Part shown: positions 10,921 through 64,000 of the stretch, in pieces
How the letters are laid out: each line of letters opens with the position of its first letter
How positions within the stretch are numbered: position 1 is the first letter of the stretch
NCBI GenBank assembly: GCA_049515915.1
Contig: JBEKTP010000005.1
Span: 15,307 to 79,306, forward strand
DNA length: 64,000 bases
Reading direction: 5' to 3'
Source: Patescibacteria group bacterium
GTDB taxonomy: Bacteria > Patescibacteriota > UBA1384 > UBA12157 > JAENIV01
The notes under the pieces: generated by a model
The model's input: the letters and a program-made list of their open reading frames with translations, nothing else
Databases searched by the model: none
Told to the model about the DNA's origin: nothing
Position numbers and translations under genes: made by a program

Positions 10921-10936
10921 AGTGATTCAGAGATGG

Positions 10937-12111: not shown

Positions 12112-12126
12112 ACCACAACTATTTTA

Positions 12127-12783
12127 CTAAGGATCACTGAAGATTTTTTCCACCTTTAATTCAATCTCATCGGCAACCTCATCAATTGGTGGGTTGCCGT
12201 CAATCTCAATTAAGACCTTTAATTTTTTATAAAAATCAATCAAAGGTTTAGTTTGTTCATTATAAACTGCTAAACGTTCTTTGACAACATCAGGTTTATC
12301 GTCTTCGCGCAAAATTAAATCTCCGTGGCATTCGTCACACTTTTTAATTTTTAGCTGAGCGGGGTTCTGAAAGATTTTTTTACAATTTTGACAAACGCGG
12401 CGGGTTGAGATGCGCTCGATTAAATTTTTCGAATCAACCTTTAAATTTAAAACAAAGACTTTACTTTTCGTGGTATTAAAATAATTTTGGAGATGTTCAA
12501 CTTGATTTAAAGTGCGGGGATATCCATCAAAAATAACACTTGAACCAAACCGTAAATTTTTAAGAGCTTGATCAACCAACTCGTTAGCGGTTTGATTATC
12601 GACTAACCTACCCGATTCGATTATATTTTTAATTTTCTTCCCCAGGTCAGTTTTATCATTTAATTCGATCCTCATGAGATCACCTGTTCCAAGATAACTT
12701 AAGCCAAAATGTTTAACGAGCTTTTTTGCTTGGGTACCTTTACCCGAGCCGGGCGCTCCGAAAATAATAAAGTGTTTTGTCAT
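12127..12783 (-). CDS. adk: Adenylate kinase (Zn-lid type)
   Basis: P-loop GAPGSGKGTQA and lid CQNCKKIF...CDEC. The start is placed at MTKHF rather than the upstream Met. Confidence 0.9.
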   Translation of the reverse strand: MTKHFIIFGAPGSGKGTQAKKLVKHFGLSYLGTGDLMRIELNDKTDLGKKIKNIIESGRLVDNQTANELVDQALKNLRFGSSVIFDGYPRTLNQVEHLQNYFNTTKSKVFVLNLKVDSKNLIERISTRRVCQNCKKIFQNPAQLKIKKCDECHGDLILREDDKPDVVKERLAVYNEQTKPLIDFYKKLKVLIEIDGNPPIDEVADEIELKVEKIFSDP

Positions 12784-12784
12784 T

Positions 12785-13369
12785 TTAACTTCCCCAGTTA
12801 CGAACAGAGTCAATTAGATAAGAATCACCCACCGCTTTGGTCGTGAAAATTTTAGTGATTTGGGTTTGACCTTTAAAAACAACAGTTACCTCGACTGTTT
12901 GTTCGTCGATTTGAACAATATTGCTGATCACCGATTGGGTAGGTGGATTTGTTCCCACAAATGCCGTAAGCTCATCAGATAAATTAGTGATTAACTGACC
13001 ACTGGAATTTTGAAGATTAGCCAAAGCTAATTGAGCGGTCAGCGTTAGTAGATTCTTGGCATCTTGAGCGTTTTGATCATTCTGAGAACCGGACGATTTT
13101 GTCCATAAATTAATAAAGTTGGTGACGGTTTGCTCCGATTGGGTTTTCCATGCTGGCGCGGTCGGCGAAGGGCTGGGTACAGGTTTAACGAGAGCCGGGG
13201 CAATAAATCGTTGATAGACAAGCAGTCCGCCGAGAAGAATAACTAATATGATAATTAAAATAACGCTCCATTGGAGTAAAAAACTTTTCTTTTCGGGATT
13301 ATTTTTAGATGCGATTTGGCGAAGTTTAGTTTCGTCAATTACAGGTGGTGGGGTGGGTGTATGATCCAA
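12785..13369 (-). CDS. Hypothetical signal-anchored surface protein
   Basis: Charged N-terminus, a single TM (ILIIILVILLGGLLVY), a Pro/Ser linker and a C-terminal domain. It is co-oriented in the cassette between secY and adk. Confidence 0.45.
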   Translation of the reverse strand: MDHTPTPPPVIDETKLRQIASKNNPEKKSFLLQWSVILIIILVILLGGLLVYQRFIAPALVKPVPSPSPTAPAWKTQSEQTVTNFINLWTKSSGSQNDQNAQDAKNLLTLTAQLALANLQNSSGQLITNLSDELTAFVGTNPPTQSVISNIVQIDEQTVEVTVVFKGQTQITKIFTTKAVGDSYLIDSVRNWGS

Positions 13370-13383
13370 ATCAACTCCTTAAT

Positions 13384-14055
13384 TTATTTAGCTACAGCAA
13401 TTAAAGTAATTGCCCAGATGCCTTGACCGCCTTTGATGTCAGGTTGAATTAAAGTGATCAGGTATTTTTGGGAGTTTTTAGAAACAGTGACCGTTGCTGT
13501 ACCGGCTGTATTATCCTTAGCTTGAAGGGTGTATTGGTCGGTATTTTGAAGACCGTAAGCCGGGCTTGAGTCGGCTTGGGCTGTCTGAACCGGGTCTAGC
13601 CGAAATTGATATTTGCTGATGTTTTTTTCGATGGCAGTGACCTGGGTCGTATTAACCGTATAGGCAATTTGACCATTTTTGGGAATAATTAATGTTTGAC
13701 CTGCTTGAACTTTATTCGGATCAGTGATACCGTTAGCGGCGGTTAAATCGGCTAAGGTTAGACCGTTTTGATTAGCGATTCCATAAAGAGTTTCACCCTC
13801 TTTAACCACGTAAGTATCGGTCGGATTCGAAGGACGAGTCGATGATGAAGCGTTAGACTGTATGCTGGTGGTTGAACTTGGACTAGGTGAAAGCGGTTGA
13901 GTCGAAACAGCATCTTGAATGGCTGGCGAGGACGAACTACCTGTCGAATTTTTTTCAAGGGTCTTAGTTTTAAAAAAGAAAAAACTTGAAGCACCTGAAA
14001 GCGCAAGAATAATTACAACTAAAACGCAGAAAAGTACCCATGTTTTTTTGGTCAT
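13384..14055 (-). CDS. Signal-anchored LysM domain protein
   Basis: LysM motif YVVKEGETLYGIANQNGLTLADLTAANGITDPNKVQAGQTLIIP. An N-terminal TM and an S/T-rich linker precede it. Confidence 0.6.
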   Translation of the reverse strand: MTKKTWVLFCVLVVIILALSGASSFFFFKTKTLEKNSTGSSSSPAIQDAVSTQPLSPSPSSTTSIQSNASSSTRPSNPTDTYVVKEGETLYGIANQNGLTLADLTAANGITDPNKVQAGQTLIIPKNGQIAYTVNTTQVTAIEKNISKYQFRLDPVQTAQADSSPAYGLQNTDQYTLQAKDNTAGTATVTVSKNSQKYLITLIQPDIKGGQGIWAITLIAVAK

Positions 14056-38966: not shown

Positions 38967-39356
38967 CTAATCCCAGGGGACCCCCATCACCCGAACCGCT
39001 GGTGCAAAAACAAGTATTATCACTGCGACGATAGCCCATGGTACAATACTTGTTCCGCTGTGTACCAGCCATCCGGCACCGAGAATGGCAATGCTGGAGA
39101 CGCAACCGCCAACTAAGGCGATGAGTGGCTTCGGCCGGTCCATGTTCTTTAGCCAGTCATTCCAGAAGCACGTGAGGATGCAAAAGCAGTACATGGCGAC
39201 GATGGACACGATAGCGAAAATCACAAGCGCGATCAGTACTCGCCAGACTGTCGCAACAGGCATCCATACGCTGATCTGCCATGCGACAAACAAAGGAAAA
39301 AGCAAGTTCACCGCGAGCATCTCCGGCAAAGTCTGGTCTTCCAAATACTGATCCAT
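38967..39356 (-). CDS. Hypothetical 4-TM membrane protein in a GC-richer islet (start at ATG with AGGAGG 8 nt upstream)
   Basis: Four hydrophobic helices, a strong SD and its own terminator. It is GC-richer than rpoB and obg on either side. No family was recognised. Confidence 0.45.
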   Translation of the reverse strand: MDQYLEDQTLPEMLAVNLLFPLFVAWQISVWMPVATVWRVLIALVIFAIVSIVAMYCFCILTCFWNDWLKNMDRPKPLIALVGGCVSSIAILGAGWLVHSGTSIVPWAIVAVIILVFAPAVRVMGVPWD

Positions 39357-39432
39357 CTCGTGCACCTCCTAGTGCATGTGATCTGAAAACATTTTAGATC
39401 GTCGGAGATGAAAAGTCAAGAAAATTCTCAAC

Positions 39433-43904: not shown

Positions 43905-43956
43905 TGTTCTTTCGCGGTAAGGCTTGCAAAAAGTAAACGATTTTAGGAATATGGGT

Positions 43957-43965
43957 GGGGGGGGG
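43957..43965. repeat. G9 homopolymeric tract at the 5' end of the GC-rich islet ORF
   Basis: gtgggggggggag seen directly. It lies within codons 2-4 of the longer GTG-initiated ORF (43955), or 35 nt upstream of the ATG at 44000. Confidence 0.7.
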
Positions 43966-43999
43966 AGCACTTCTCACAATTTATGCAGGAAGGACCACT

Positions 44000-44401
44000 A
44001 TGGAAGTAATTCATCAGATCGTAACTCAGATTGTGATTATGGCGCGCGAGAATGATGGCGGGGAAAGCAGTTTCATCGCCAAGATTCTCGCAAGGAGTCT
44101 CCTGTGCTGCAACATCAAGGTGGTTGCGGCCGGTGAGCCCATCCCCGATCTCAAAGGCGAGGACGACATCCTGGTTCTCTCGACCGAACGGCTCCAAACG
44201 GTCAACCAGGCCGCCGAGATGGTTACCGCCACCGACGGCGAGATCCTGATACTGGAAGAGAACAACGCTTTTCCCGTTCCTGGCGAAGTTCGAACGGTCA
44301 TTACTAACATTCCCAAACTGCACTTCGGGAATGTTACCAGGTTGACAGGAACAGACTTGGCTGAAACCGTCCTCGAACAGATCGCCAAGATCAGACAATA
44401 A
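44000..44401 (+). CDS. Hypothetical 133-aa protein in a GC-rich islet (alternative GTG start at 43955)
   Basis: SD GGAAGGA lies 5 nt upstream of the ATG. A GC hairpin follows the stop. No family was recognised. The antisense ORF 43943-44440 is judged an artefact of high GC. Confidence 0.4.
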   Translation: MEVIHQIVTQIVIMARENDGGESSFIAKILARSLLCCNIKVVAAGEPIPDLKGEDDILVLSTERLQTVNQAAEMVTATDGEILILEENNAFPVPGEVRTVITNIPKLHFGNVTRLTGTDLAETVLEQIAKIRQ

Positions 44402-44422
44402 AATGAACCCGCAGTACCAAAA

Positions 44423-44460
44423 GGCGGGGTGCCCACGCACCCCGCCTAACTCATCTTTAA
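44423..44460 (+). terminator. GC hairpin GGCGGGGUGC-CCAC-GCACCCCGCC with a weak U-tract
   Basis: A 10-bp perfect inverted repeat immediately after the stop of the islet ORF. Confidence 0.35.
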
Positions 44461-44999: not shown

Positions 45000-47900
45000 T
45001 CAATTGTCTCCACCTTCTCCACCCCAATAGTTTGGCTCACTTTTCTTTTTAAATAAATTAGGCAGGTTTTGGTCGATAGTTTTATTAGGATTGCCTTTGG
45101 GCGATTCGTCTTTTTTGGTATAATCGTTGACTTTGATATCTTTTCGGTTTTTAAAAATTTGCGGTTGGCGCCACGAGTCCGCGTGAACTTTCGCCCAATC
45201 GGGAATTTTCTTCTCTTTCTCCTCTGATTTGCTTTCGGCGTTTTGGACCACGGGCGATGGCTTCTTTGACCCTTTTTCTTCGGCCGGTTTTTCTTTAATT
45301 TGCTCTTCAACTTCTTCCTCGACCCTTGCTTCCTCACTTATCTTAATAGTTGGAACTTCGTCATCTTCATCACTTTTTACATCATCAAGATCACCCCCAG
45401 TATTCGGCTCGCTCGGCAAATCAAGTTTATCAGTCATATCCTTTTTGATTACGGTAACAGAAGTGACTTTATCGCCAGAATTTAATTTGATCAGTGTGAC
45501 GCCTTGCGTGTCACGCTGCAATTCTTTAATCGAGGAAAGGGACATTCTAATAACTTGGCCTTTGGATGAAGCCAAAATAACATCGTAGTCTTCGCCGTAG
45601 ACCAGCCGCATGCCGACAATCGGCCCGGTCCGTTCGGTCACATTAGCCGCTCGAATACCCATCCCACCGCGAATCTGAGTTTTAAATTGGGGCAGTGGCG
45701 TACGTTTACCAAAGCCTTTTTCTAAAACAATCAAAGCATCAGCATCTTTCTCGCGTTCAGGGCTGACAACGTCAGTTGAAACAACATAATCATTTGCGCG
45801 TAGGGCAATACCACGCACACCAGCCGCGGTGCGGCCCATTGGCCGGATATCGGTTTCCTCATAAAGAATCGATTGTCCGCGGGCTGAGACTTGGAATATT
45901 TTTGAATTGCCTTTTGTAAATTTAACCCAGCGTAAGCGGTCATCACCTTTGAGCTTCATTGCCAAAATACCGGTTTTTCGAACTTTACTGTACATCGAAA
46001 GAGTCGTTTTCTTAACTGACCCTTTAGTGGTAGCCATCATGATAAATTTGAATTTTTCTATGTCCTTGGTCGACAAACAAATCATCGACGTCACTTTTTC
46101 TTCGGGCGAAATTTGTAAAATATTGACAATCGCTTGGCCTTTGGCAAGGCGAGAAGCGGCGGGAATTTCATAGACTTTGGTGTGGAAAACGCGGCCTCGA
46201 TCGGTGAAAAAGTAAATATCATCGTGAGTATTAGCGATAATCAAATGCTCAATCATATCTTCTTCGCGCGTTTCCATTCCCATCACCCCTTTGCCGCCGC
46301 GGACTTGACTTTTATAAGCTGCCGCCGGCATTCTTTTGATGTAATTACCACGCGTTAAAATAATAATGACTTGTTCCGATGGGATCAAATCCTCGGCCGA
46401 GAATTTGCCGATTTCTTGTGCGTAGATTTTAGTACGGCGAGGCGAAGGGAATTTATTTTTTAAATCTGTTAATTCTTTTTTGATAATTTCTAAAATCTTT
46501 TGTCCGGATGCTAAAATAGCTTCGAGCGAAGTAATAAGTTTAATTTTTTCTTGATATTCCGTTTCAACTTTTTCGCGTTCAAGAGCAGCCAGTGCCGAAA
46601 GACGCATTTCTAAAATAGCATTGGCCTGGACTTCGTCAAGTTTAAATTTAGTAATAAGCTTTTTTTGAGCCTCATTACGGTTAGTTGATTTACGAATTGT
46701 CGCGACCACTTCGTCGATATTTTTTAGCGCAATGCGCAAGCCTTCCAAAATATGAGCGCGTTCCTTCGCGCGGTCAAGTTCAAATTGAGTGCGGCGACGG
46801 ACAACGACTTGGCGATGTTTGATATATTCTTCCAAAATATTTTTCAAAGTCAAAACGCGCGGTTGTATTCCATCTACTAAAGCGAGCATGTTGACATAAA
46901 ATATCGTCTGCATCGTCGTTAGTTCATAAAGACGGTTTAAGATTTTTTTCGGGTAGGCGTTAGCGCGCAGCTCAATGACAATTCTCACCCCGTCTTTTCG
47001 GTCAGACTCATCGCGCAGATCTGAAATGCCATCGAGTTTTTTTTCTTTAACTAAATCGGCGATCTTTAAAATCAATTCGGCTTTATTAACTTGATAAGGA
47101 ATTTCAGTAACAATAATTCGAAAACCGCGTTTGGTTTCTTCGATATTGGCGACTGCCCGCATTACAATCGCGCCTTTACCGGCCCCGTAGGCATTTTTGA
47201 TTTGCGCGAGTCCATAAATTTCAGCGCCAGTTGGAAAGTCCGGCCCTTTGACAAAAGTCATCAAATCATCAATTGTGCAGTCGAGATTATCGATGAGATA
47301 AATAGCAGCGTCGCAAACTTCACCTAAGTTGTGAGGCGGGATGTTGGTAGCCATACCGACAGCAATACCCATTGAGCCGTTGAGTAGAAGATTCGGCAAT
47401 TTAGCTGGTAAAACTTTTGGTTCTTCGCGGGTGCTATCGTAGTTCGGCACAAAATCAACAGTATCTTTTTCAATATCAGAGAGCAATTCTTCGGCGGGTG
47501 CGGTCAGTCGACATTCGGTATTATGGTTAATAAAACCATTACCTACATACGAATGACACTCACTCTCAACTTTCAAAGAATAAACTTGTGCTCGACCGCC
47601 ATCACTGATCTTTGTTATCGGATCAAAAAGATAATGATTTGACAAGAGTGTCTTAAAAATATTTTTTAAATATGGCTGAACGTTTACTTTTACAGCCGAA
47701 ACAACAGCTTGATAATTCTCTTGCATTTGGAGATAGCGATCAAAATTATGTTTGACAACAAATTGTCGAACATCATGATAACTTAAACTCTCATCAAGAT
47801 TAGACCGTGTATAATCACTTAGTAAAGGCACAAAATCCGTCTGCGATTGTACTTTTTTCAAACCCTGTATAACTACTTTTAATTTATCTTTTTTTATTTT

Positions 47901-49373
47901 GCCTAAGAAATTAATTTCATGATTAAAAATCCGATAATTATCCAAACCACGAACATATAGCTTATAAATGCTTCGATAATGATCCAAGCGCAGAGTACTC
48001 GCGACCCCAAATCTCAAAAGGAGAATTTGAATTTGACGGAGGATTTCATTATTCTTGGAGATACAACTTAACTCTATCATTTTACCACTGGAACTAATTG
48101 TTCCATCCCCTTCAAAATACGCGCTCAAAAAAATACTGACCACTGATTTTGGAGATTGAAAAATTGACCAAGGAACAAGCCGATCTGCGGACTTACACGG
48201 CTTAAGACCAATGCTTTGTAAAAAACGCAAAACGTAGCGGGAATGAATTTCTAAAGTGTAGTATGATTTCTTACCAAATCCAAATGATGATGGTCTTTTT
48301 TTGAATTCATGAAGACGGCAATCCGGAAAAACCCTAAACCATCTCTTTTTAAAATTATTTATCCATTGCTTGTCAGTATTGGAAAATTCCAGCTCATTCT
48401 GACACAATGTTCCTTCAGATAGAAGCGACCCTAAAATATAAGCCAAATCTTGATTAAGCATTTTTGGTAAAACTTTTTTTTGAGCACGAGAATTTTCATC
48501 TTTCGGCCAATAAGGTTTTAGTTGAACCTTTTTCTTGGGCCATAATAAATCCGGAGTCCGGTTAATTACCGCTACATCGCCAAATTTAACTTGACTAAGC
48601 AGCTTCCACTGCAACCCCGGTGCACCATTACTTCCGTCCCCATGCCAAACTAAAATCGGATGATTATAAGAACCCTGAAGAGTATAACCTCTTAGTGTTG
48701 AGATTTTAATTGTTGGATGAGTACCGCTATCAAACCATTTAATAGCCGAGTTGATTTTTTGATTTTTTGAAAGTATTTTGCATTTAATGTCTTCCCGGCT
48801 ATCACTTGAAATGTCTTTGATTGGCATTAAACCCTTATCGGTAATAATTAAAGTATCGCCAGTAACGCAGTAACGCATAGCGGCCGCTTGGTCACCGTCA
48901 ACTGAACCGAAATTTCCCTGACCATCAACAAGGCGAACACCCATCGAAAAATCCTGGGCCAAACGAACGAGCGTATCATAAACGGCAATGTCGCCGTGCG
49001 GATGGTATTTACCCAAAACGTCACCCACCACAGTAGCTGATTTGCGATATTTGGCTTGGTGAGTCAATCCAAGTTCGTTCATCGAAAATAAAACGCGACG
49101 ATGAACTGGCTTTAAACCATCACGAACGTCAGGCAAAGCACGCGAAATAATCACCGACATAGCGTAGTCAAGATAAGATTCGCGCATTTCATTTTCTAAA
49201 ACGCGCCCGCGGACTAGCCCATAATTAGTTTTTTCGTCTTTGCCTTCCTTTTCTTCGGTAAAATCACCTAAAATTTCGGCTTTAGCCACTTCTTCAGGAT
49301 TTAATTCAGCCAATTCTTCAGCTTTAATTTCAGCGATGTTTTTGTCAGGATTATTTTGTTTTTTATCAGCCAT
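45000..49373 (-). CDS. gyrA: DNA gyrase subunit A, interrupted in-frame by an intein; long acidic/Lys-rich C-terminal tail
   Basis: N-terminal GyrA motifs through GDQAAAMRY (active-site Tyr168). An intein follows, then extein resumes at [13 protein letters not shown]. The extein is ~1007 aa. Confidence 0.9.
47520..48869 (-). mobile_element. GyrA intein (450 aa) with LAGLIDADG homing-endonuclease domain, inserted after the catalytic Tyr
   Basis: It starts at Cys (CVTGDTLII) immediately after AAMRY and ends ...[22 protein letters not shown], followed by T. Two LAGLIDADG-like blocks ([22 protein letters not shown]). Same insertion site and terminal blocks as the Mxe GyrA intein. Confidence 0.85.
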
Positions 49374-49688: not shown

Positions 49689-52088
49689 TCAAATATCTAA
49701 ATTCTTAACATTTTTTGCGTGGGTAAGAATAAAGCGTTTGCGCGGCGCTACTTCGTCGCCCATGAGCATCGAAAAAACTTGATCAGCTCTTTCCGTATCG
49801 TCAACGGAAACTTTGAGTAAAACGCGATTTTCCGGATTCATCGTCGTTTCCCAAAGTTGTGTCGGCTGCATTTCTCCCAAACCTTTGTACCGTTGAATAT
49901 AAACATCTTTGCCCAATTTTTTAATAATCTTATCTTTTTGATCATCGTTATAGGCGTATTCCTTGACCTTACCCTTGGAAATGGAATAGAGCGGCGGTTG
50001 GGCAATGTATAAATTATTATTTTTGATTAAGTCGGGAAAATGACGATAAAAGAAAGTCAATAAGAGTGTGCGGATATGCGCGCCGTCAACATCGGCATCA
50101 GTCATAATAATGACACGGCCGTAGCGGAGCTTGGCCATGTTAATACCCTCGCCAATACCCACCCCCATGGCGACAATTAGCGACTTAATTTCTTCAGATG
50201 AAAGCATCCGGTCAAGTCTAGCCCGCTCAACATTTAAAATTTTTCCACGTAAAGGCAGAATTGCCTGAAACATCCTGTCGCGTCCTTGCTTTGCACTATT
50301 ATGAACAAAGACGCCGCTCGTGAGAGCAAAGTTGTGCGTCTTCGGCACCTCACAATCATATACATCAATTTTTTTTGAAAGAAATTTTATTAACTTTATT
50401 TTGTGGTTATAGCTTTTTACCGTCTCTGAAAATTTTGTACGATCACTATTTAAAAACCGCTCGATCAAAGGCATCAAACTATTATTATTTTCTAAATCTT
50501 TTGCCATCCGATAATGGCCATCACGAAGCATAAACCGGTGATCGGGAGTGCAAATAATTTTTTCATTATTGTCTAATGTAATTTCAATAACTTGAGTATT
50601 TCTTTTTGTTATTCTTGGTGAAAGAATTTTTTCGATACCTATATTTCCATCTGATTTAATTGTATAACAATAATTTGTTTTGCCTCTTTGGTATTCTTTA
50701 ATAAGTTCTTTAAAACTCAAGTTTCTACCGTCAGCTAAAACGAGTTTAGTATCCCCAGAAAAACATCCGCCAGCAGAGTTGCCCTCAACAATATAGAGCT
50801 CGGCGTTTTTCGGATCGCGGGTTGAACAATCGGCAAGCTTGCCGGGCAAAGTCATCCCTTCCAGCGCGCCTTTACGAATAACCGTCTCACGCGCTGCTTT
50901 GGCGGCCAACCGGGCCCGCAAAGATAAAGAACATTTTTCAACAATTCTTTTGGCGTCCTGCGGATGCTCGTCAAGCCAATAACTTAATCCCTCTAAAGTG
51001 GCTTGTTCAACAATGGATTTAACTTCCGGATTGCCGAGCTTGGCTTTTGTCTGACCTTCGAATTGCGGATTCGGGAGTTTAACCGAAATTACGGCCGTCA
51101 ATCCCTCGCGTGTATCATCACCGGAAAGAACCGCTTCGACGCCTTTAACCATCTCATTTTTTTTAGCGTAATCATTAATCGCCCGCGTCAGCGCCGAACG
51201 AAAGCCCGTCAAATGCGAGCCGCCTTCGGTCGTATAAATATTATTGGCAAATGAAAAAACGTGTTCATTATAATCATCAGAATAAGCTAGTGCTACTTCA
51301 ACGCGGATGTCGTCTGACTGTTTTTCTAAATAGGCCGGCGGATCGTTAAAAACTTCTTTGTCTTTATTAATATGGCGAACGTATGATGAAATGCCGCCTT
51401 CAAAGTAGAAAGTGTAACATTTTTCGGGATCAACTGGCTTAGTAAAATCTTCATCTTTTCTTCGATCGCAAATAATAATTCGAATGCCGCGCGTTAAATA
51501 AGCTTGCTGACGCAGATGATTAATGATTGTTTCTAAAGAAAAATTTCGGCTCGAAAAAACCTCTGGGTCTGGCTCAAAAGTAATGGCCGTGCCTTTTTCT
51601 TTAGTTTCACCCACCGGTTTAACCGCCGCTTTAGGTTTACCGCGGACATACTCTTGAACGTAAATTTTGCCATCGCGAAAAACCTCGGCTTTGGTATAGA
51701 TTGAAAGGGCGTTAACCACCGAAACACCGACCCCATGAAGACCGCCGGAGACTTTATATCCGCCGCCTTCGCCGAACTTAGCGCCGGCATGCAGGGTCGT
51801 CAGAACCGTTTCTAAAGCTGATTTTTTAGTCTGAGTGTGAATATCCACCGGAATGCCGCGGCCATTGTCTTTGACCCGAACACGATCTTTCGGCAAAAGC
51901 TCTAAAATAATAGTGTCACAGTAGCCGGCCATTGCTTCATCGATAGCGTTATCCACCACTTCCCAAACAAGGTGATGAAGACCTTCGGCACCCGTTCCGC
52001 CAATATACATGCCTGGACGGCGGCGAACCGGCTCAAGGCCTTCCAAAACCGTAATATTTTGCGCGGTATAACCCGCTTCTTTAGGCAC
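49689..52088 (-). CDS. gyrB: DNA gyrase subunit B, interrupted by a mini-intein
   Basis: GHKL ATPase and TOPRIM motifs. ...LYIVEGNSAGG, then intein, then SAKQGRDRMFQAILPLRGK. The extein is 643 aa. Confidence 0.9.
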   Translation of the reverse strand: MPKEAGYTAQNITVLEGLEPVRRRPGMYIGGTGAEGLHHLVWEVVDNAIDEAMAGYCDTIILELLPKDRVRVKDNGRGIPVDIHTQTKKSALETVLTTLHAGAKFGEGGGYKVSGGLHGVGVSVVNALSIYTKAEVFRDGKIYVQEYVRGKPKAAVKPVGETKEKGTAITFEPDPEVFSSRNFSLETIINHLRQQAYLTRGIRIIICDRRKDEDFTKPVDPEKCYTFYFEGGISSYVRHINKDKEVFNDPPAYLEKQSDDIRVEVALAYSDDYNEHVFSFANNIYTTEGGSHLTGFRSALTRAINDYAKKNEMVKGVEAVLSGDDTREGLTAVISVKLPNPQFEGQTKAKLGNPEVKSIVEQATLEGLSYWLDEHPQDAKRIVEKCSLSLRARLAAKAARETVIRKGALEGMTLPGKLADCSTRDPKNAELYIVEGNSAGGCFSGDTKLVLADGRNLSFKELIKEYQRGKTNYCYTIKSDGNIGIEKILSPRITKRNTQVIEITLDNNEKIICTPDHRFMLRDGHYRMAKDLENNNSLMPLIERFLNSDRTKFSETVKSYNHKIKLIKFLSKKIDVYDCEVPKTHNFALTSGVFVHNSAKQGRDRMFQAILPLRGKILNVERARLDRMLSSEEIKSLIVAMGVGIGEGINMAKLRYGRVIIMTDADVDGAHIRTLLLTFFYRHFPDLIKNNNLYIAQPPLYSISKGKVKEYAYNDDQKDKIIKKLGKDVYIQRYKGLGEMQPTQLWETTMNPENRVLLKVSVDDTERADQVFSMLMGDEVAPRKRFILTHAKNVKNLDI
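50298..50765 (-). mobile_element. GyrB mini-intein (156 aa, no endonuclease domain) at the EGxSAGG|SAKQGRD site
   Basis: CFSGDTKLVLADGRNLSFKELIKEYQRGKTNYCYTIKSDGNIGIEKI...ICTPDHRFMLRDG...SGVFVHN, followed by S. It closely resembles the splicing domain of the Synechocystis GyrB intein (from memory). Confidence 0.85.
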
Positions 52089-57415: not shown

Positions 57416-57549
57416 CATTTTATCCTTAAAATTCAATTTCAACCTGATATTATAATGCCAAGATATCCACAGGGGAAAGACAGTAAAAAGTAAGAAGTTA
57501 TTAGTTATTGGTTATTAAGTATAGATACCAAACTAGAGCTTATTTCCAG

Positions 57550-57578
57550 TTGACAAACAGGTTCTCCTGTGATAAGAT
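57550..57578 (+). promoter_or_regulatory. Promoter TTGACA-17-TAAGAT driving the first high-GC gene
   Basis: Consensus -35 with a 17-nt spacer; the -10 matches the TAAGAT variant used by tuf and fusA here. SD AAGGAG at 57598-57603. Confidence 0.5.
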
Positions 57579-57610
57579 ACAATATTCGCCGTAATGAAAG
57601 GAGAACGGTC

Positions 57611-58027
57611 GTGCCGATTATCACAGGGAAAGGTGTCCCGGCGGGTCTCGAAAAAGGAAAGAAGGTATACGACCAGCTCAAGCATGACATCGCGGTGGCG
57701 GCCGCAACAACACGAGGCCTCGAAGATATCGGATTCGACGAGGTGGAAGTCTTCCTGATATCTGACCTCGGCACCGTCGGCAATGCTCTTGTCTTCGAGG
57801 TTACCGGGATCTTCGAGCGCCCCGACCGGACGCCAGAGGTCTACCGCCGACTCGAGGAGAACATCTGCAGGGTCCTCCGCTCCTTCGCGAGCAAGTGGAT
57901 CCCGGCGTGCACTACCGTCGAAGCGGAGGTGATCCACAAGATGAAGCCGAAAGACTTGACGCTCTACGTACGACCAGACATCCTGGGCCTGCGCATACGG
58001 AGATTCAAGAGAATCCGATTCAAGTGA
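57611..58027 (+). CDS. Hypothetical high-GC protein (~138 aa, GTG start, N-terminal MPIITGKG; possible tautomerase-like Pro1 protein, very tentative)
   Basis: AAGGAG lies 7 nt upstream of the GTG. High-GC codon usage. Overlapping antisense ORFs are ignored. Confidence 0.4.
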   Translation: MPIITGKGVPAGLEKGKKVYDQLKHDIAVAAATTRGLEDIGFDEVEVFLISDLGTVGNALVFEVTGIFERPDRTPEVYRRLEENICRVLRSFASKWIPACTTVEAEVIHKMKPKDLTLYVRPDILGLRIRRFKRIRFK

Positions 58028-58102
58028 TGCGCATTGCGCGCATCACAAGCAGTACAAAGGCGGCGCCTGGGACACCAGGCGCCGCTTCTTCATATCAATA
58101 CC

Positions 58103-58163
58103 AAAAAGAGCTTTCGTTCTCAAAAAACAGGAAGGGCGGAGCGGACACCAGTCCGCCCCGCCC
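58103..58163 (-). terminator. 62-bp repeated element, copy 1: AGAGC-UUUC-GCUCU mini-hairpin plus 13-bp GC hairpin with a minus-strand U-run (purB-like gene terminator)
   Basis: aaaaagagctttcgttctcaaaaaacaggaagggcggagcggacaccagtccgccccgccc. On the minus strand the GC hairpin is followed by CUGUUUUUUGAG. Confidence 0.5.
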
Positions 58164-58169
58164 GCTCAC

Positions 58170-59588
58170 TTAGGCCACCAGTTGTCTCCTGGCGAGCCTG
58201 GCCACCTGCTGGGCCTTCTCGAAGGCCAAGCCAGTGTATTCTTCAGGTCGGTGAAGCAGCTCCATGATTGAGGGCGGAATGCGGCCAATCGCATCCAGGA
58301 GCGCTTCGTTTGGCATGTCCTCAAGGATGTCGATGAGGAGTCGCCCCGTCCTCTTGGACTCCGGCACAGCCTGCTCGGCCACAATCTTGTAGCCGTCGCC
58401 TTCGAAGCCGGCGATCTGCAGAGCCAGTTGCGTCGGCTCGGCCAGAAGGAAGGGGGCAACCAAGCGGAAGTTCCGTTCACAAGCATCGGCATTGACGACC
58501 ACGCGCGCCAGGAAGGGCACCCCGTCATCGTTGCGTCGCCTAAGCGTGTTAAGTTGCTGCATAACGTTGACGACGATGACCGGGAAGAAGCGCGCGACGG
58601 GACTGCCGACCAGGTCACGCTGGAGATCGCTGATGAGAGTATCCATGACGTTCCCGAACATATTCTTGGTCAGGATCCATATTCCTACCATGTTCTCGAA
58701 GTTGATCGGGTTGGTCTTCTGTCCCAACGTCGAGGAGCCAACCTCTCCGAGACCTTTGACCTCCGCGAACTCGGCGATTTCCGTGCGCATCAGGTTGCGC
58801 GCGTCCTGCCCAAGCTGCGCCATCGAGGCAGAGAAAAGACAATTCACAAAGAGGTGCAACGCCAGAGGTTCGGGCGGCAGGATCTGGGTGCTAATGCGGG
58901 CAGGCTGAAGGCCAAGTTTGGCAAGAACCCGATATTCGAACGAACACCCACCACACTTGGCAAGGATGCCCAAACCCTTCTGGGCATTGAAGGCGCCAAC
59001 CGCACCGGAGATCTTGCCGACAATCTGCCCGCAGGCCCGATCCATCTCCTCGAGCGTATACAGATAACGGGAAAGGATGGTTGCGAGCCAGAAGCCGACG
59101 GTGATCGGCAAGGCGGCTTGGAGATGTGTCCGTCCAAGCTGGAGCTGGTCAGCAAACCGTTCCACTAAGTCAGATAGCAACAGCCCGACCTCGCTGGCGG
59201 CTGGGCGGACCGCTTCTCGGTGAGCCCGAACAAAGGACATCGCCCGAGCCGTGTCGAGAGGGTCGTAGCTCGTCAAGCCGGTGTGGATCCACCGGCCGAG
59301 ACGGCGATCGACCCGTTCCATTGCCAGTTGGACCCAGGCGCGAATATCGTGCTTGGTCACCTTCCGTTCGCGCTGATCTACCTCGGTCGTGGTTATCCCG
59401 AGAAGCTGTTCACGAACATCAGGCGTCAAGAGCGCGATATCATCAGCAGGAATGAAGCCGATCTCGCCAAGCACTTCCAGATTGGCGATCTCGACTCGGG
59501 CTACGCCCTCGTACGAATGGTCGTAGCCGAAGATAGGCACAAGTTCTTTTGGCTGATACCGAGAATGCCCCGGCAGCGTCTCGTTCAT
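58170..59588 (-). CDS. purB: Adenylosuccinate lyase-like (fumarate-lyase superfamily; divergent signature loop)
   Basis: ASL-like N-terminus (..KHDIRAWVQ..) and the lyase-1 signature region GSSTLGQKTNPINFENM in place of canonical GSSAMPHKRNPI..EN. GC is high. Confidence 0.65.
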   Translation of the reverse strand: MNETLPGHSRYQPKELVPIFGYDHSYEGVARVEIANLEVLGEIGFIPADDIALLTPDVREQLLGITTTEVDQRERKVTKHDIRAWVQLAMERVDRRLGRWIHTGLTSYDPLDTARAMSFVRAHREAVRPAASEVGLLLSDLVERFADQLQLGRTHLQAALPITVGFWLATILSRYLYTLEEMDRACGQIVGKISGAVGAFNAQKGLGILAKCGGCSFEYRVLAKLGLQPARISTQILPPEPLALHLFVNCLFSASMAQLGQDARNLMRTEIAEFAEVKGLGEVGSSTLGQKTNPINFENMVGIWILTKNMFGNVMDTLISDLQRDLVGSPVARFFPVIVVNVMQQLNTLRRRNDDGVPFLARVVVNADACERNFRLVAPFLLAEPTQLALQIAGFEGDGYKIVAEQAVPESKRTGRLLIDILEDMPNEALLDAIGRIPPSIMELLHRPEEYTGLAFEKAQQVARLARRQLVA

Positions 59589-59664
59589 GTCGCGCTATGT
59601 TCTCCTTCCGCAAGTGAGTTGCTGCTCTGATTTATTTATAACAAATATTTGCTTTTTGGCAAAC

Positions 59665-59726
59665 CAAAAAAGAGCTTTCGCTCTCAAAAAATGGGAAGGG
59701 CGGAGCGGACACCAGTCCGCCCCGCC
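59665..59726 (-). terminator. 62-bp repeated element, copy 2 (purL terminator)
   Basis: aaaaaagagctttcgctctcaaaaaatgggaagggcggagcggacaccagtccgccccgccc. The 3' 34 nt are identical to copy 1. Confidence 0.5.
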
Positions 59727-59749
59727 CGGGATAGTCGGATAAGACCGCG

Positions 59750-62700
59750 CTACTTATTCGCGCGGCACCAGTCGAGGCCGTTCAGGCCGATTTGAATCCA
59801 AGGTGACTCCGGAAGGGTTTCCCGCCACTCGGGAGGCATCCAGGCCCAGAGCCTCTTCAAGTAACCACGATCAAACATGTGTGGCATGACGTAGGTGTTC
59901 CGACCGGGTTCGTCGCAAACACCTGCGACATAGTGGCCGCTCGGACTGTACGGCAACGCGCGAGTGCGGCGACCATGGGCGTCAACGTAGACGACTGGAA
60001 TCAGCCGCTTCTCATTGGCCTGCTCGAGCACTTCGGGATAGGCGGTGCAATCGAAGAAACCCTCGCCATTGGCTACGTAGGTGCCGAGAACCGATCCCTC
60101 CATCCCCCGAAAGAGAATGGAAGTGCTCGGCTCCACCAACACGCGCACCCATTGGTGATTGAACGAACCCAACTTAATCTGGGTGAACTTAGGCTGCTGG
60201 TCCTCGGGCAGTTGCGGAAATGGCGCCCAGCCGCAGCGGAGACCGAGTTGGGCTCCGTTACAGACCCCGAAGCTAAAGGTATCATCCCGAGCGAAGAACT
60301 GCTCGAAGATTGCCTTAAGCTTGGGGTTCATCTTGATCTTGAGGGCCCACCCGACCGCTGCTCCAAGGACATCGCGGAAGGTGAATCCGCCGGGGAAGAT
60401 CACGCCCCGAAACATCTCGAGGTTGTCGAGTCGACCCAATAGGAAGTCATTGAGATGAACTTCCCACGGGTCGAAGCCGACGTACCGCCAGGCCGCCATC
60501 ATCTCCACATGGCCGTTTGTTCCCTGTTCGCGGATCACCGCGAGCTTTGGCTTGTCCGGATTTCGGAGAATTGACCGCGGCCGCGTGGGTATAAATGTCA
60601 AGCGGTAGAGCGGCTGTTCGCGCGTGGCTGTGTTGCGCCATTCCTTTCCGGCCTCCGCAGGGTTGACGCGAATCTTGCGGAATTCATAGCCAGTGCGCTC
60701 CCACTTTCGCCGTGCTTCAGCCGTTGTAGCATTGAGAATCTCCTCGCCGTTATGGTTGAGACTGATCGTCTGTTCAGTCGTTGTCCGACCAAGCACCTGA
60801 TAAGGCACACCATAGTCATCGAGAACCTCACGTACCTTATCTAGGTTTTCGTCAGAGACTTCGACAACGAATCCCAACTCCTCGGCGAGCCACTCGTTGA
60901 AGGCGGAGTGCGGTGTGTTGGTGGCAAGCTTGACCCCGCAACCGGTGGCAAAGCACATTTCCGCCACTGTTGCGGCCAAACCACCGGAACTGATGTCGTG
61001 CCCGGCCGTGATGAGCTTGCTGAACAGTAAGTCCTGAGCCGCTGCGAAAGTCTTCAGTAGTAGATCGGGCCGGTCGAGGTTGGGACAATCCGCGCCCAAC
61101 TGACCAAGAGTCTGTCCGAAGGACGAGCCGCCCAGACGGCGTTCACCGTTAGCGATGTCGATCCTAACAAGCATACTCCGGCCGGGGTACTTAATCTCCG
61201 GTGTAACGTAGACTGAGATGTCCTCCACCGTGACGGCCGTAGAGAAAACGACGGTCTCGATCGACTTGACCAGAAGCTTCTTGACCCAAGTGGCCATCGA
61301 ACTCGAGTCTTTACCACCAATGATGGCAGACCAGAGCTTGATGAGCGTGTCGCGAACAGCTCTGACCGCGGCATCGAGTCGAGCAATCTCTCCATCAGGT
61401 GGCTTGAGTGTCGCCGGCCACATCCAGTTACAAAGACACTTGATCTTCTTGATGTTATCGATGCCCATGCCCATGAGGTTAGTGTACATCTCCCCAATGG
61501 ACATGCGGGCACCCGCTTGCGGATCAAGAGCAGTTAAGTACGGCGCAACCCCGAGAGTGGCAGCCTGGCCCGACTTGGAGGCTGAACTGAAGGCAACAAG
61601 TGAACAGTCGGCGACAGGAGTCGCGAACGGGCCGCAATACTGGTTCTGCACGACGAGCCCGCCAATACTTCCATCAACGCCGCGGGTAACGAACTCCTTG
61701 CTTCCCACTTCGCTCCGGCGGAAGGTTTGGAAAGCAGCTCGTTCGAAGGTGAGATCATCAGGAATCTCGAGCGGAATTCTGATGTCTTCGGGGGTTGTGT
61801 CGTGAATGTCCGGGCTATCGATCTTAGCCAAGAGCTCCGCCATAACGAAATCGACGATTGGCTTGGCATGCTTGGCCTTGACCTCTGCCTTACTGGCTTC
61901 GGAAAAGACTTGAAGACGACCGTCGCCGGCAATCTCGCCGAGAACTTCGATCGGACAGTTCTCGCGGCGGCAAACGTAACGGAGCCACTTAAGGTCACGC
62001 TTCCAGATGAGGATGCCCTGCCGTTCCTGATACTCACAGACCCAGACTTTGGCATCGGACATGGTCGGATCGCCGCGGTTGACCTGGCCGAGATAGATAC
62101 GGCCGCCAGCCCGGCCAATCAGTTCCGAAAGGATATTGGCGACGCCGCCAGCACCCTGGTCGTGAATGGCGACGATAGGGTTCTTCCGTCCGCGGGCCAT
62201 GCAGGCCAGCAGCACCTGATAAAACCGCCGTTCCATCTCGGGATCACCACGCTGAACGGCGTTCTCATCGAAGGTTGCGGTGTTCGAGCCCGAAGTCGAG
62301 CTGGAGCCCGAGCCGCCACAGAACCCGATCGGATAGGCCGGTCCCCCGATCTGAACGACTAGCATCCCCTTGCGAGGCTTCCCCTTCCGAAGATGCTGAT
62401 GCTGAATCGCGCCGCCACCAAAGCCGAAACCAACCGGCTTAAGCGACTCGACACGTTCCATGATAATCTTGCCTCGCTTGTTACGCCGAGGCCGCCAGAT
62501 GGCACCCGTAAACCAGAAACCAGCAGTGCAGGGCTTACCAAATGCATCAGCGTAGTCGTGCCAGCCTTGAAGACTCTTGGCCGCGACTTCGACCGGGGTA
62601 GCCTTGTCAGTCGGGTAGTCATAGCGCCGCCCGCGGATGAATTCGCCGGGAATACGGTAGCCGCTCGGGAAGCGGATGCTCCCCAAAATCCGACCCTGTA

Positions 62701-63661
62701 GTGCGTACAGGATGTCGGATACACTGCCGGCGCCTAGCTGATCGCGGATCTCGCCCCCAATCTCTGTCGCCGAGCCCGGATAGGGCGCGACGTGATCAGG
62801 ATAGTTGTGCGTCTCCGCACTAAATAAGGCATGGAGTGTCACCCGGACCCACTTGTAGGGACCAGGTTCCCCGGGATAGGCCGCCACGAGCACGGGCACA
62901 GTGGAACCTTCGACGGCACTCGCGTTATCGGAGCCCGCGATCATGATGTTGTCGGCGTCGGTCCCCCGAAGCGCCTTGAGCGGCTCCCGAAGGAGTTCGA
63001 TCAAAGTGTAGGGCCGACGCTCGCCATCAATCACAAAGTGGGTCAGGAAGAAGAGGTCGTGCCAGCAGTGGTTAGACCACATCTGACTGAGCTGATAGAG
63101 CGCCACGTCAGTGGGGTTTCGCCCCATCCGTACGAATATCCGCTCTATCCGCTGGAGCTTCGCTTCATTGAAGCCGAGGTTCTCGGCTGTATTGAAGTGA
63201 TCGAGCGCCGCTCTTCCCTCCTCGAAAAGCGGGATGACGCGAACAGGCGGCACCGCAACGTCTACTTGGAAACTGCAAGGCAGCTCCTCGTAGATTTCTT
63301 CAGTCACCATATCGCGTCTTGTCTTGAGGAATTCGGTCGGGTCTCTGCCCGAAGGAACAGCGTACCGTCTGAAATGCTCGATTCGTCCGACTTCAGGGAA
63401 GCCAACAGCGTGAGTGATCTCAACAGCCATCGATGAAAACGGCGTCTCAATCGCCAGCCGAGGCCCAACGATAACAGCACCGTCAAGCTCCGGGATGTTC
63501 GTGACACGATGCGTCGGCAGATACTTGAAGAGTCCTCGTATGCTGGCGATGAGCCTCCTCGACTGCGCCAGAGTGAGAGAAACGTCAATCCCGACCAAGA
63601 AGCAGCTTTCCGAACCGTCCGGCTCGAGCCGGTAAAACGGCAACGTCATCTTCTTTGTCAT
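59750..63661 (-). CDS. purL: Phosphoribosylformylglycinamidine synthase, large single-chain form (1303 aa)
   Basis: N-domain, two PurM-like repeats (AIHDQGAGGVANILSELI; VQIGGPAYPIGFCGG) and a C-terminal class-I glutaminase with GVCNGAQLG. Very high GC. Confidence 0.85.
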   Translation of the reverse strand: MTKKMTLPFYRLEPDGSESCFLVGIDVSLTLAQSRRLIASIRGLFKYLPTHRVTNIPELDGAVIVGPRLAIETPFSSMAVEITHAVGFPEVGRIEHFRRYAVPSGRDPTEFLKTRRDMVTEEIYEELPCSFQVDVAVPPVRVIPLFEEGRAALDHFNTAENLGFNEAKLQRIERIFVRMGRNPTDVALYQLSQMWSNHCWHDLFFLTHFVIDGERRPYTLIELLREPLKALRGTDADNIMIAGSDNASAVEGSTVPVLVAAYPGEPGPYKWVRVTLHALFSAETHNYPDHVAPYPGSATEIGGEIRDQLGAGSVSDILYALQGRILGSIRFPSGYRIPGEFIRGRRYDYPTDKATPVEVAAKSLQGWHDYADAFGKPCTAGFWFTGAIWRPRRNKRGKIIMERVESLKPVGFGFGGGAIQHQHLRKGKPRKGMLVVQIGGPAYPIGFCGGSGSSSTSGSNTATFDENAVQRGDPEMERRFYQVLLACMARGRKNPIVAIHDQGAGGVANILSELIGRAGGRIYLGQVNRGDPTMSDAKVWVCEYQERQGILIWKRDLKWLRYVCRRENCPIEVLGEIAGDGRLQVFSEASKAEVKAKHAKPIVDFVMAELLAKIDSPDIHDTTPEDIRIPLEIPDDLTFERAAFQTFRRSEVGSKEFVTRGVDGSIGGLVVQNQYCGPFATPVADCSLVAFSSASKSGQAATLGVAPYLTALDPQAGARMSIGEMYTNLMGMGIDNIKKIKCLCNWMWPATLKPPDGEIARLDAAVRAVRDTLIKLWSAIIGGKDSSSMATWVKKLLVKSIETVVFSTAVTVEDISVYVTPEIKYPGRSMLVRIDIANGERRLGGSSFGQTLGQLGADCPNLDRPDLLLKTFAAAQDLLFSKLITAGHDISSGGLAATVAEMCFATGCGVKLATNTPHSAFNEWLAEELGFVVEVSDENLDKVREVLDDYGVPYQVLGRTTTEQTISLNHNGEEILNATTAEARRKWERTGYEFRKIRVNPAEAGKEWRNTATREQPLYRLTFIPTRPRSILRNPDKPKLAVIREQGTNGHVEMMAAWRYVGFDPWEVHLNDFLLGRLDNLEMFRGVIFPGGFTFRDVLGAAVGWALKIKMNPKLKAIFEQFFARDDTFSFGVCNGAQLGLRCGWAPFPQLPEDQQPKFTQIKLGSFNHQWVRVLVEPSTSILFRGMEGSVLGTYVANGEGFFDCTAYPEVLEQANEKRLIPVVYVDAHGRRTRALPYSPSGHYVAGVCDEPGRNTYVMPHMFDRGYLKRLWAWMPPEWRETLPESPWIQIGLNGLDWCRANK

Positions 63662-63875
63662 GGAACAAAACCTCGCTGCAAGGATTACAAGATACTAAGA
63701 CTCTCTGGTCATGCCGACGGCAGAGAACCAGTTAGTCTTCGACTTAATCTTACAAACCCAAATGACATAAAAAAAGTCTTAAGTCAAGACGTGCTCTTTT
63801 TTATTTGATAACTCAAAAAAGAGCTTTCGCTCTTTGAAATGCAACGGCCGAGACCCACGTCGGATCTCGGCCAGT

Positions 63876-64000
63876 CAGTTGTCCTCCTCGTCGGAAGCAG
63901 TATTAGTTTTTTTCGTGGCTCGCTCGCGTTTATCCAGTCCCTCGACACAGTGAGGACACATCTTCATCACTAGTGTGTCCGGAGCGGCTGCATAAAACTC
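63876..64000 (-). CDS. Partial CDS (C-terminus only) ending ...LVMKMCPHCVEGLDKRERATKKTNTASDEEDN*
   Basis: Open frame to the window edge with stop TGA at 63876-63878. The CPHC motif hints at a zinc ribbon. Identity unknown. Confidence 0.25.

Follow-up and report, generated by a model that had tools for sequence, protein, structure and literature searches.

The subject of this report is a GC-rich block near the end of a 64,000-nucleotide stretch of a Patescibacteria chromosome (the window: assembly GCA_049515915.1, contig JBEKTP010000005.1, positions 15,307 to 79,306 of the forward strand; coordinates refer to the window unless a contig is named). The block extends over ~6 kb (57611-63661) inside an AT-rich chromosome and consists of three open reading frames (ORFs), which encode a predicted tautomerase-superfamily protein of 138 amino acids (aa), an adenylosuccinate-lyase-like enzyme and a large single-chain formylglycinamidine ribonucleotide (FGAM) synthetase, PurL (Table 1). 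An earlier note on the window had described the lyase and PurL; the tautomerase-like gene, missing from it, is the third gene of the block. The three genes are laid out as separate transcription units; every one of them has a terminator to itself, and for two a promoter could be read.

Table 1. Features of the GC-rich block and its borders in window coordinates (GC3, GC at third codon positions; MFE, minimum free energy; z, score against shuffled sequence).
Feature	Coordinates	Strand	Evidence or remarks
Strain-variable cassette, 563 bp (promoter, tautomerase-like gene and terminator)	57541..58103		blastn of sister-strain contig L010 against contig L001
Sigma-70-type promoter TTGACA-17-TAAGAT with TG	57550..57578	+	10/12 consensus matches
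Predicted tautomerase-superfamily protein, 138 aa, GC 0.58, GC3 ~0.7	57611..58027	+	GTG start; fold and alignment
Hairpin of the tautomerase-like gene, 13-bp, GC-rich, terminator-like, weak U tract	58058..58087	+	MFE -36.1 kcal/mol, z -5.9
First copy of the 69-nt terminator module, following the lyase gene	58096..58164	-	MFE -35.8, z -4.9
Adenylosuccinate-lyase-like enzyme, 472 aa, GC 0.59, GC3 0.71	58170..59588	-	Pfam Lyase_1, E 2e-24
5' region of the lyase gene, GC 0.39, with putative promoter TTGCCA-16-TATAAA and GGAAGGAG	59589..59659	-	Read from the sequence
Second copy of the 69-nt terminator module, following purL (91% identity to the first)	59660..59728	-	MFE -44.1, z -5.5
Large single-chain FGAM synthetase PurL, 1303 aa, GC 0.58, GC3 0.68	59750..63661	-	NF003672 and Pfam domains
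purL upstream region, GC 0.42	63662..63796	-	-10-like TAAGAT at 63747-63752; hairpin apex CCGTCGG at 63714-63720
Terminator module of the 165-aa gene, third, partial repeat copy	63797..63874	-	MFE -34.5, z -5.6
3' end of a 165-aa gene, no Pfam match, GC 0.49	63875..64000, continues past the window	-	L001 9290-9787

GC content in 1-kb intervals was 0.36-0.47 up to 57 kb and 0.56-0.61 at 58-63 kb, and at a resolution of 200 nt it rose from 0.31 to 0.56 between 57400 and 57800, which places the step at 57500-57700. Against 56 non-overlapping host ORFs (mean GC 0.415, sd 0.042; mean GC3 0.381, sd 0.065) the three block ORFs reached z-scores of 3.5-4.2 for GC (0.56-0.59) and of 4.6-5.0 for GC3 (0.68-0.71). 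The share of AAA among lysine codons was 0.81 in the host and 0.07 in the block, that of TTT among phenylalanine codons 0.77 and 0.24, and that of TTA among leucine codons 0.33 and 0.02; lysine made up 8.9% of the residues in the host and 3.8% in the block, and arginine 5.4% and 7.5%, respectively. The tetranucleotide distance to the host mean was 0.052 for the block and at most 0.016 for host chunks. The jump at about 57.6 kb with GC3-dominated codon usage, which the earlier note had judged by eye, is hence borne out by the 1-kb, 200-nt and per-gene statistics, as well as by the codon-usage (GC3 z about 5) and tetranucleotide comparisons that it had proposed. The same note had let the GC-rich segment run to the window end; the solid block stops at the purL start (63661), and positions 63662-64000 comprise intergenic DNA and the 3' end of the 0.49-GC gene. 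Its description of the intergenic DNA as AT-rich applies to the promoter and 5' untranslated pieces (GC 0.39-0.42) but not to the terminator modules (GC 0.45-0.58), and the GC enrichment thus belongs to the coding sequences and the terminator stems. A purine-sparing bias towards A-poor mRNA was considered as an explanation and rejected, since the lower share of A in the block genes (0.20 versus 0.31 in the host) follows from GC content alone and total purine content (0.49-0.55 versus 0.525) gave no signal. Two ORFs in the host part of the window, at 38967-39365 (minus strand, 132 aa) and 43943-44440 (minus strand, 165 aa), have no Pfam match, a GC of 0.53 and a GC3 of 0.65 and 0.59, respectively, with a local 200-nt GC of 0.52-0.535; further small GC-rich insertions are one possibility for these ORFs, and another is that they are not genes.

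The junction between host DNA and the block was recovered independently of the window. Contig L001, which matches the window with 100% identity along 14,251 bp (window coordinate = 73662 - L001 coordinate), runs 10 kb beyond purL, first through low-GC genes for a cupin, a desulfoferrodoxin and a DUF5652 protein, then through a second GC-rich islet, and then into low-GC ABC-transporter genes. Identical PurL and lyase sequences at the same junction were read on 22-23 contigs from JGI and ENA assemblies (34 index blocks), all with the same neighbours (a 67-aa gene, a sugar transferase, GT1, Wzz, DUF4012 and gyrB), and NCBI and Logan likewise have records of both proteins (in NCBI, PurL is MGA2667001.1 and the locus tags of the assembled genome are ABSE91_*). 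The NCBI label 'Patescibacteria group bacterium' is attached to PurL and the lyase and likewise to the EF-Tu, EF-G and DUF4012 proteins of the window. Furthermore, a 541,934-bp contig of a sister strain (L010, ERZ25039512 contig_69030, 94-96% nucleotide identity) has the GC-rich lyase gene at the same place. An assembly or binning artefact, in which a GC-rich contig of another organism was joined to a contig of the Candidate Phyla Radiation (CPR), could appeal to the abruptness of the step and its position near the window end and to nothing else, and is hardly conceivable given the repeated junction, the 542-kb sister-strain contig, the perfect identity of L001 and its return to low-GC CPR genes within 10 kb past purL. 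The earlier note's preference for integrated DNA over a random chimeric join is therefore upheld.

The purL product passed the family model NF003672 (931 bits, cut-off 783) over model positions 51-1289 of 1290 and is thus full-length, and scored 963.7 bits against the stricter TIGR01735, under its cut-off of 1123. All five Pfam domains were found, namely FGAR-AT_N, FGAR-AT_linker, FGAR-AT_PurM_N-like, AIRS_C (twice) and GATase_5 (residues 1037-1299), in the order expected for large PurL: an N-terminal domain, a linker, two PurM-like halves and a C-terminal triad glutaminase. The single-chain FGAM synthetase of the earlier note is accordingly confirmed by family model and domains alike. Cys1134 and His1261 were invariant across the 16 members of the PurL clade alignment. 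Comparison with L012, a metagenome contig with the closest PurL (73% identity), gave dN 0.21, dS 2.3 and dN/dS about 0.09 (nonsynonymous and synonymous divergence), indicating purifying selection, and the enzyme would convert formylglycinamide ribonucleotide, glutamine and ATP to FGAM. It shares with the large PurL of the Salmonella/E. coli type (NF003672/TIGR01735) the full-length architecture, the NF003672 match and the nucleophilic Cys and the His, and departs from it by the missed TIGR01735 cut-off and by a shifted acidic residue of the glutaminase: the canonical large-PurL motif at the catalytic His is MPHPER, and the post-His motif here, read in the purL remnant of the sister strain, is MPHMFDR. 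The best match in a search of 5.8 billion proteins was 60% identical, and both this relative and that at 73% have the same gene neighbourhood as the window. The clade to which the protein belongs is small (47-60% identity), and its named members are Candidatus Berkelbacteria (54% and 49%) and 'Patescibacteria'; a GTDB scan with the single PurL sequence gave no match, and a scan with the clade alignment did. All large PurLs outside this Berkelbacteria-type clade, from other CPR, Desulfobacterota and Actinomycetota, are only 37-40% identical. A phage-borne gene pool was rejected as the origin of the block, since IMG/VR holds only PurL relatives of 28-32% identity and none of the 138-aa protein.

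For the lyase the best NCBIfam match was purB (TIGR00928) with 208 bits, under the cut-off of 326, and NF006764 was matched with 125 bits, under its cut-off of 446; the top matches in the PDB were adenylosuccinate lyases throughout (E 1e-26). The PurB-like assignment of the earlier note therefore stands on Lyase_1 and the best family match, though the latter is below its cut-off. In alignments with 8jbd and 2x75 the motifs hTGLTSyD, RTH and GSS..K.NP were retained, with Leu-Gly in place of Met-Pro in the loop. The enzyme thus resembles PurB (TIGR00928, fumarate-lyase superfamily) in its family and structure matches, in the catalytic His motifs, the Ser-Ser pair, the Lys and the Asn-Pro, and in having pur genes as neighbours (purL in the window, purC in L175 and purD/purN/purL in L174). 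It differs in the low score, in the few residues in common with solved adenylosuccinate lyases in the alignments shown, in the signature loop GSSTLGQKTNP instead of GSSAMPHKxNP, in that no C-terminal Pfam domain of adenylosuccinate lyases was called, and in a family that is found almost only in Patescibacteria. Among more than 1256 homologues the top 120 were 52-65% identical, and the named ones were nearly all Patescibacteria from several phyla-level groups, which marks this as a CPR-type gene and not a foreign type. Between L001 and L010 the lyase was 98% identical in amino acid sequence (dN 0.008, dS 0.118, dN/dS about 0.07) and is intact and under purifying selection in the sister strain, where purL is destroyed. 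As judged from sequence, the enzyme would catalyse both the step from phosphoribosylaminoimidazole-succinocarboxamide to aminoimidazole carboxamide ribonucleotide and that from adenylosuccinate to adenosine monophosphate (AMP), and its retention without purL fits a role in the AMP branch too.

No Pfam or NCBIfam match was obtained for the 138-aa protein. An exhaustive HMMER search returned 40 small homologues (40 clusters in 1.84 billion representatives), and in an alignment of 29 of these P2 of the ORF, G66 and R73 were invariant and M1, T74, C100 and E104 nearly so; all 29 start with (M/V/I)-Pro, and two gave a weak match to PF01361 (Tautomerase, E 0.018). The AlphaFold2 model (pLDDT, the predicted local confidence, 92.3) shows a twofold beta-alpha-beta arrangement, for which the top Foldseek matches in the PDB were fused 4-OT, cis-CaaD, Cg10062 and MIF (probability 1.00, TM-score about 0.6). 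On this structural prediction the protein is assigned to the tautomerase superfamily, with a fused 4-OT / cis-CaaD / MIF-like fold and an N-terminal Pro-1. The likeness to these two-repeat tautomerases lies in the Pro after Met, the invariant Arg near position 73 and the predicted fold, whereas identity to solved members is 9-18%, the sequence falls outside the Pfam model and the family is rare. By blastn of L010 against L001, positions 15559-16121 of L001, that is the 563-bp cassette with this gene, its promoter and its terminator, are absent from L010. The cassette is bordered by imperfect direct repeats (GCTCT..TTTGGTAT..), which are single-copy in L010, and the left GC boundary is hence the edge of a strain-specific cassette.

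The region contains 10 promoter-like sites against 3.3 expected. The promoter of the tautomerase-like gene and the AAGGAG Shine-Dalgarno sequence (57598-57603, 7 nt ahead of the GTG start) are present as the earlier note had described them. The use of the promoter-like sequences ahead of purL and the lyase gene is putative, and the consensus promoter scan did not report the TTGCCA-16-TATAAA of the lyase gene. A terminator module follows each of the three minus-strand genes (the 165-aa gene, purL and the lyase gene) and is built from a 13-bp GC hairpin with a U run behind it, then a small hairpin with a GAAA loop, AGAGCGAAAGCUCU, and another U run; the module of the 165-aa gene has its own GC hairpin (63845-63873) ahead of the common AGAGCGAAAGCUCU-U run. 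The terminators fold more stably than their shuffled counterparts (-34 to -44 kcal/mol, z -4.9 to -5.9). The 69-nt module occurs only in the species of L001 and L010, in the latter with compensatory changes in one hairpin. These repeats were read as ordinary tandem terminators. Alternative assignments to repetitive extragenic palindromes mobilised by a Y1 (RAYT-like) transposase or to integron attC sites were rejected, as no more than three copies exist, every one of them immediately behind a stop codon, the insertion sequence (IS) elements carry other end hairpins and there is no integron integrase. The convergent hairpins of the tautomerase-like and lyase genes (58058-58087 and 58134-58163) have a common core, GGACACCAG / CTGGTGTCC.

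The element upstream of purL is made up of TAAGAT, then TCGGAAC, then an extended imperfect hairpin (apex CCGTCGG), and is common to L001, L012 (9880-10000), L006 (9880-10000) and L174 (5190-5313), where it precedes a PurL of a different lineage. The pairs flanking the apex co-vary (TGCCG/CGGCA versus TTCCG/CGGAA), and RNAalifold gave 17 pairs, five of them with compensatory changes, in four sequences only; the MAFFT alignment was poor for L174, and the fold was not more stable than shuffles (z -1.5). The evidence being thin, the hairpin (apex CCGUCGG in the transcript) may be a cis-regulatory, possibly purine-responsive element. Another leader is common to L007, L092 and L095. A known riboswitch was rejected for purL, the lyase gene and the tautomerase-like gene, as no Rfam model matched their upstream regions at gathering thresholds, and hairpin-level chance matches had E-values of up to 1.

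The sister strain L010 differs from the window strain at this locus in more than the cassette. It has no purH, and a 218-aa gene stands in place of purH and the adjoining IS element. Its purL is reduced to the last ~850 bp, which keep an intact reading frame for the glutaminase (GATase) end. An IS200/IS605 element (L010 8440-8990, corresponding to about 60601-63790 of the window) with a 138-aa Y1 transposase and the hairpins CCCCAATGCTTGGCATTGGGG and CCCCACCGCTTGCGGTGGGG abuts ...CTTGAC in the purL upstream region, and the sequence resumes at the purL-internal TTGACATTT, with 3.06 kb of purL missing. The element lies between two TTGAC sites, with TTGAC as its apparent target.

The block occupies a zone between a conserved cell-envelope cluster (sugar transferase, GT1, Wzz and DUF4012, then gyrB/gyrA) and small host genes. 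The second GC-rich islet, read on L001, holds a 98-aa ORF and purH with an ordinary-GC IS200-type transposase gene between them, and a truncated beta-ketoacyl synthase gene; purH, itself GC-rich, lies 3.2 kb past the window end. A second, distinct Y1 element adjoins purH (L001 6830-7440). The beta-ketoacyl synthase gene (GC 0.57) encodes a full-length protein of 443 aa in L010 (3636-4967) and 221 aa in the window strain (L001 4160-4825), where a 1.17-kb deletion has cut it and also removed part of a NUDIX gene; to our knowledge, fatty-acid synthesis is usually lacking in CPR. Separately, gyrB (49689-52088, 799 aa) contains an intein that is absent from L010 and L006 (643 aa), and gyrA (45000-49373) contains an intein with a LAGLIDADG endonuclease, its product being 1457 aa long here, 1452 aa in L010 and 1045 aa in L006.

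GC-rich purine genes in low-GC surroundings recur in related genomes. These include a truncated purL in L006 (GC 0.61, neighbours about 0.40), purL in L007 (0.585, neighbours about 0.41), purD, purH and purL in L012 (0.59-0.63, neighbours 0.40-0.47), and purD, purN, purL and a lyase gene in L174 (0.58-0.63, neighbours 0.41-0.47). L006, L007 and L174 have in common with the window the locus next to a 66-aa gene, and L012 shares host genes with L006, its contig ending just past purL. Further GC-rich pur genes in a low-GC setting were found in L014, L015, L095, L097 and L021, and in L175, where the lyase gene stands with purC. Of the 12 PurL clade members for which DNA was available, about 10 stand as GC-rich islets in hosts of ~40% GC; the exceptions are Berkelbacteria Bin_65_7, in which purL is host-like (GC3 0.41 versus 0.45), and the mosaic contig L092. 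In Desulfobacterota, Actinomycetota and most other CPR, GC3 of purL is near that of its neighbours. The genes purD, purN, purH, purM-like and purC adjoin those for PurL or the lyase in L012, L014, L015, L093, L174 and L175, and a purC-purE fusion stands beside purL on contig P0005. In L006, purL (10001-13075) encodes 1024 aa without the glutaminase domain, a 109-aa ORF (13119-13448, minus strand) resembles by eye the N-terminal part of PurM, and decay of the purine locus seems to be under way in this lineage. GC-rich ORFs of 148 and 158 aa at the same position in L006 (1607-2053, minus strand) and L012 (2312-2788, minus strand) are 40% identical, and the adjoining Zip transporters are 95% identical.

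In the usual description, Patescibacteria cannot make nucleotides and rely on their hosts for them, and the earlier note had used the absence of de novo purine synthesis as a guide to foreign origin. This premise was not supported, as the pathway is complete in 32% of 399 genomes of CPR assembled from metagenomes (MAGs) in one survey (PMC11608272); together with a preprint according to which de novo nucleotide synthesis is absent from 93% of Patescibacteria genomes (10.64898/2026.06.21.733656), this makes purine synthesis in CPR a minority but known trait. The purH gene near the window and the pur genes around PurL and the lyase in relatives suggest that the purL and lyase genes are part of a de novo purine pathway with a patchy occurrence in the lineage.

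Sequence comparisons of the block genes with their hosts, made by pairwise identities and a neighbour-joining tree, contradict strict vertical inheritance of PurL at the locus. Among L006, L012 and L174 the host proteins are close (desulfoferrodoxin 83-89%, BNR-like protein 76-79%, Zip transporter 95%, 66-aa protein 91%; range 71-91% for L174 versus L006 and L012), and the L001 host is more distant from all three (desulfoferrodoxin 63-67%). PurL of L001 is 73% identical to that of L012 but PurL of L006 only 59%, and PurL of L174 is about 30% identical to all three. The L174 protein is 37-41% identical to large PurLs in general and thus represents another lineage, not a fast-evolving copy. With L001, L006 and L007 taken by themselves, PurL and host proteins do diverge in step; it was the inclusion of L012 and L174, and the comparison of dS, that told against vertical descent. 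PurH of L001 and L012 has a dS of 0.85, with 0.59 identity at fourfold degenerate sites (random expectation 0.29), whereas the desulfoferrodoxin gene, a host gene common to the L001 and L012 loci, and the host genes compared between L001 and L006 are saturated (fourfold identity 0.26-0.33). PurH relatives were found at 80% identity (best full-length), 84% (over 83% of the query) and 73%; the rest were at most 58% identical, and the few named ones were Patescibacteria. The horizontal acquisition proposed in the earlier note is thus corroborated, by the differing gene content of L010, the other PurL lineage in L174 and the lower synonymous divergence of purH relative to host genes.

The donor that the earlier note had implied is another matter. 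It would have been a GC-rich non-CPR organism, either a Gram-negative bacterium or the GC-rich host of the episymbiont, from which the genes came by recent transfer. The foreign GC content and codon usage are as expected from such a source, the next tier of PurL sequences includes Desulfobacterota and Actinomycetota with 55-62% GC, and known Patescibacteria hosts are GC-rich (bioRxiv 10.64898/2026.06.21.733656). However, those PurLs are no closer than those of other CPR, PurL has its nearest relatives in Patescibacteria, the lyase family extends across that group, the nearest named relatives of PurH also belong to it, and the promoter regions are host-like and conserved across CPR relatives. 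Large PurL is a poor guide to a Gram-negative donor here, and we consider this origin improbable. The protein searches and trees by which the earlier note had hoped to name a donor lineage yielded none, the best relatives being at 73% for PurL, 65% for the lyase and 80-84% for PurH.

We therefore consider that the window probably holds a GC-rich, laterally exchanged accessory block in a variable zone of a Patescibacteria chromosome, with Patescibacteria themselves as the most likely partners of exchange. The block is made of three stand-alone units with strong intrinsic terminators: a tautomerase cassette that comes and goes between strains, a CPR-type lyase gene and a large purL. Inheritance of the pur genes would not be strictly vertical: they would pass or be replaced laterally, most probably between Patescibacteria, and some strains would be in the course of losing them. 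The GC-rich genes of these genomes are not only purine genes but include the beta-ketoacyl synthase, a helix-turn-helix protein and small ORFs, which speaks for a general pool of foreign or accessory genes rather than for selection specific to purine genes.

Several observations weigh against lateral exchange of this kind. No donor was found: the closest relatives are at 73% (PurL), 65% (lyase) and 84% (PurH), and of the PurL and lyase relatives, those with a context read (L012, L006 and L174) are in related genomes of ~40% GC. No uniformly GC-rich genome with this PurL clade emerged from 5.8 billion proteins, GTDB or the metagenome scans. Between the purL genes of L001 and L007 the fourfold degenerate sites are fully randomised, and yet they are GC-rich in both (0.65-0.72), which a simple recent import that has not adapted in composition does not predict unless an unsampled GC-rich donor group exists. 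No integrase was found in the window or the flanks read and no tRNA gene in the window, and the IS200/IS605 Y1 transposase genes near the block lie outside the window and do not bracket it. Part of the discordance between PurL and host in L006 could stem from relaxed selection on the truncated copy, and the rest of the purine pathway was not seen in the window and the flanks read. Perhaps, then, either a diverse GC-rich donor group is unsampled, for which Patescibacteria of high GC like L152 may be candidates, or the genes retain their composition where they are.

The latter alternative supposes that the pur genes entered an ancestor of the CPR family once and have long been resident, with a gene-specific force holding GC3 near 0.7 in a genome of 40% GC; candidates would be selection on the composition of codons or mRNA, and biased gene conversion in a common accessory pool. 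It would account for the locus with GC-rich pur genes common to L001, L006, L007, L012 and L174, for the similar divergences of PurL and host among L001, L006 and L007, for the conserved promoter and leader, for fourfold sites that are randomised but still GC-rich, and for the lack of a GC-rich source genome in the searches above. It is difficult to reconcile with the different PurL lineage at the same locus in L174, with a PurL identity between L001 and L012 that exceeds that between L012 and its near relative L006, with a PurH dS below host dS, with the host-like GC of the Berkelbacteria Bin_65_7 PurL and with GC-rich genes that extend past the purine genes, and we know of no bacterial mechanism that keeps a gene-specific GC-rich composition. 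We thus regard long residence as unlikely. A related view is that the pur genes and a few accessory genes form a GC-rich compartment which circulates among the AT-rich lineages of one family-level group with GC3 kept near 0.7. There would then be no GC-rich source organism, and the composition would be kept by selection on codons or mRNA (e.g., for low translation in a cell tuned to AT-rich codons) or by GC-biased conversion; we offer this as a doubtful, speculative option.

With lateral exchange among Patescibacteria as the preferred reading, the locus shows at strain resolution, within one lineage, how purine genes come in, how those of another lineage replace them and how an IS element destroys them, which gives a direct view of shifting host dependence. 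It is also a genuine case of an 18-point GC step within the contig of a MAG, a point of relevance to contamination filters, by which regions of this kind are thrown out. GC-rich purine genes that recur without a visible source pose a modest but real question about the rate of drift to host composition and the residence of such pools.

Two kinds of known systems invite comparison. The Y1 element of L010, with subterminal hairpins and a purL deletion beside it, resembles an IS200/IS605 insertion with adjacent deletion; this is an event of L010 and not of the window, and the element neither carries nor brackets the GC-rich genes. Genomic islands and mostly CPR-to-CPR transfer have been described in Patescibacteria (PMC12455944). 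Of the features by which islands are recognised, mobility borders and a donor lineage were not found at the block, and deviant composition, variable presence and discordant phylogeny were. The block differs from the described islands in having no integrase or tRNA border, in being a string of single-gene units with their own terminators, and in that its GC-rich purine genes recur at a common locus in several relatives with no source genome found. It is like them in its deviant accessory DNA, CPR relatives, nearby IS elements and strain-variable content and, given that islands and CPR-to-CPR transfer have already been reported (PMC12455944), is only moderately unusual.

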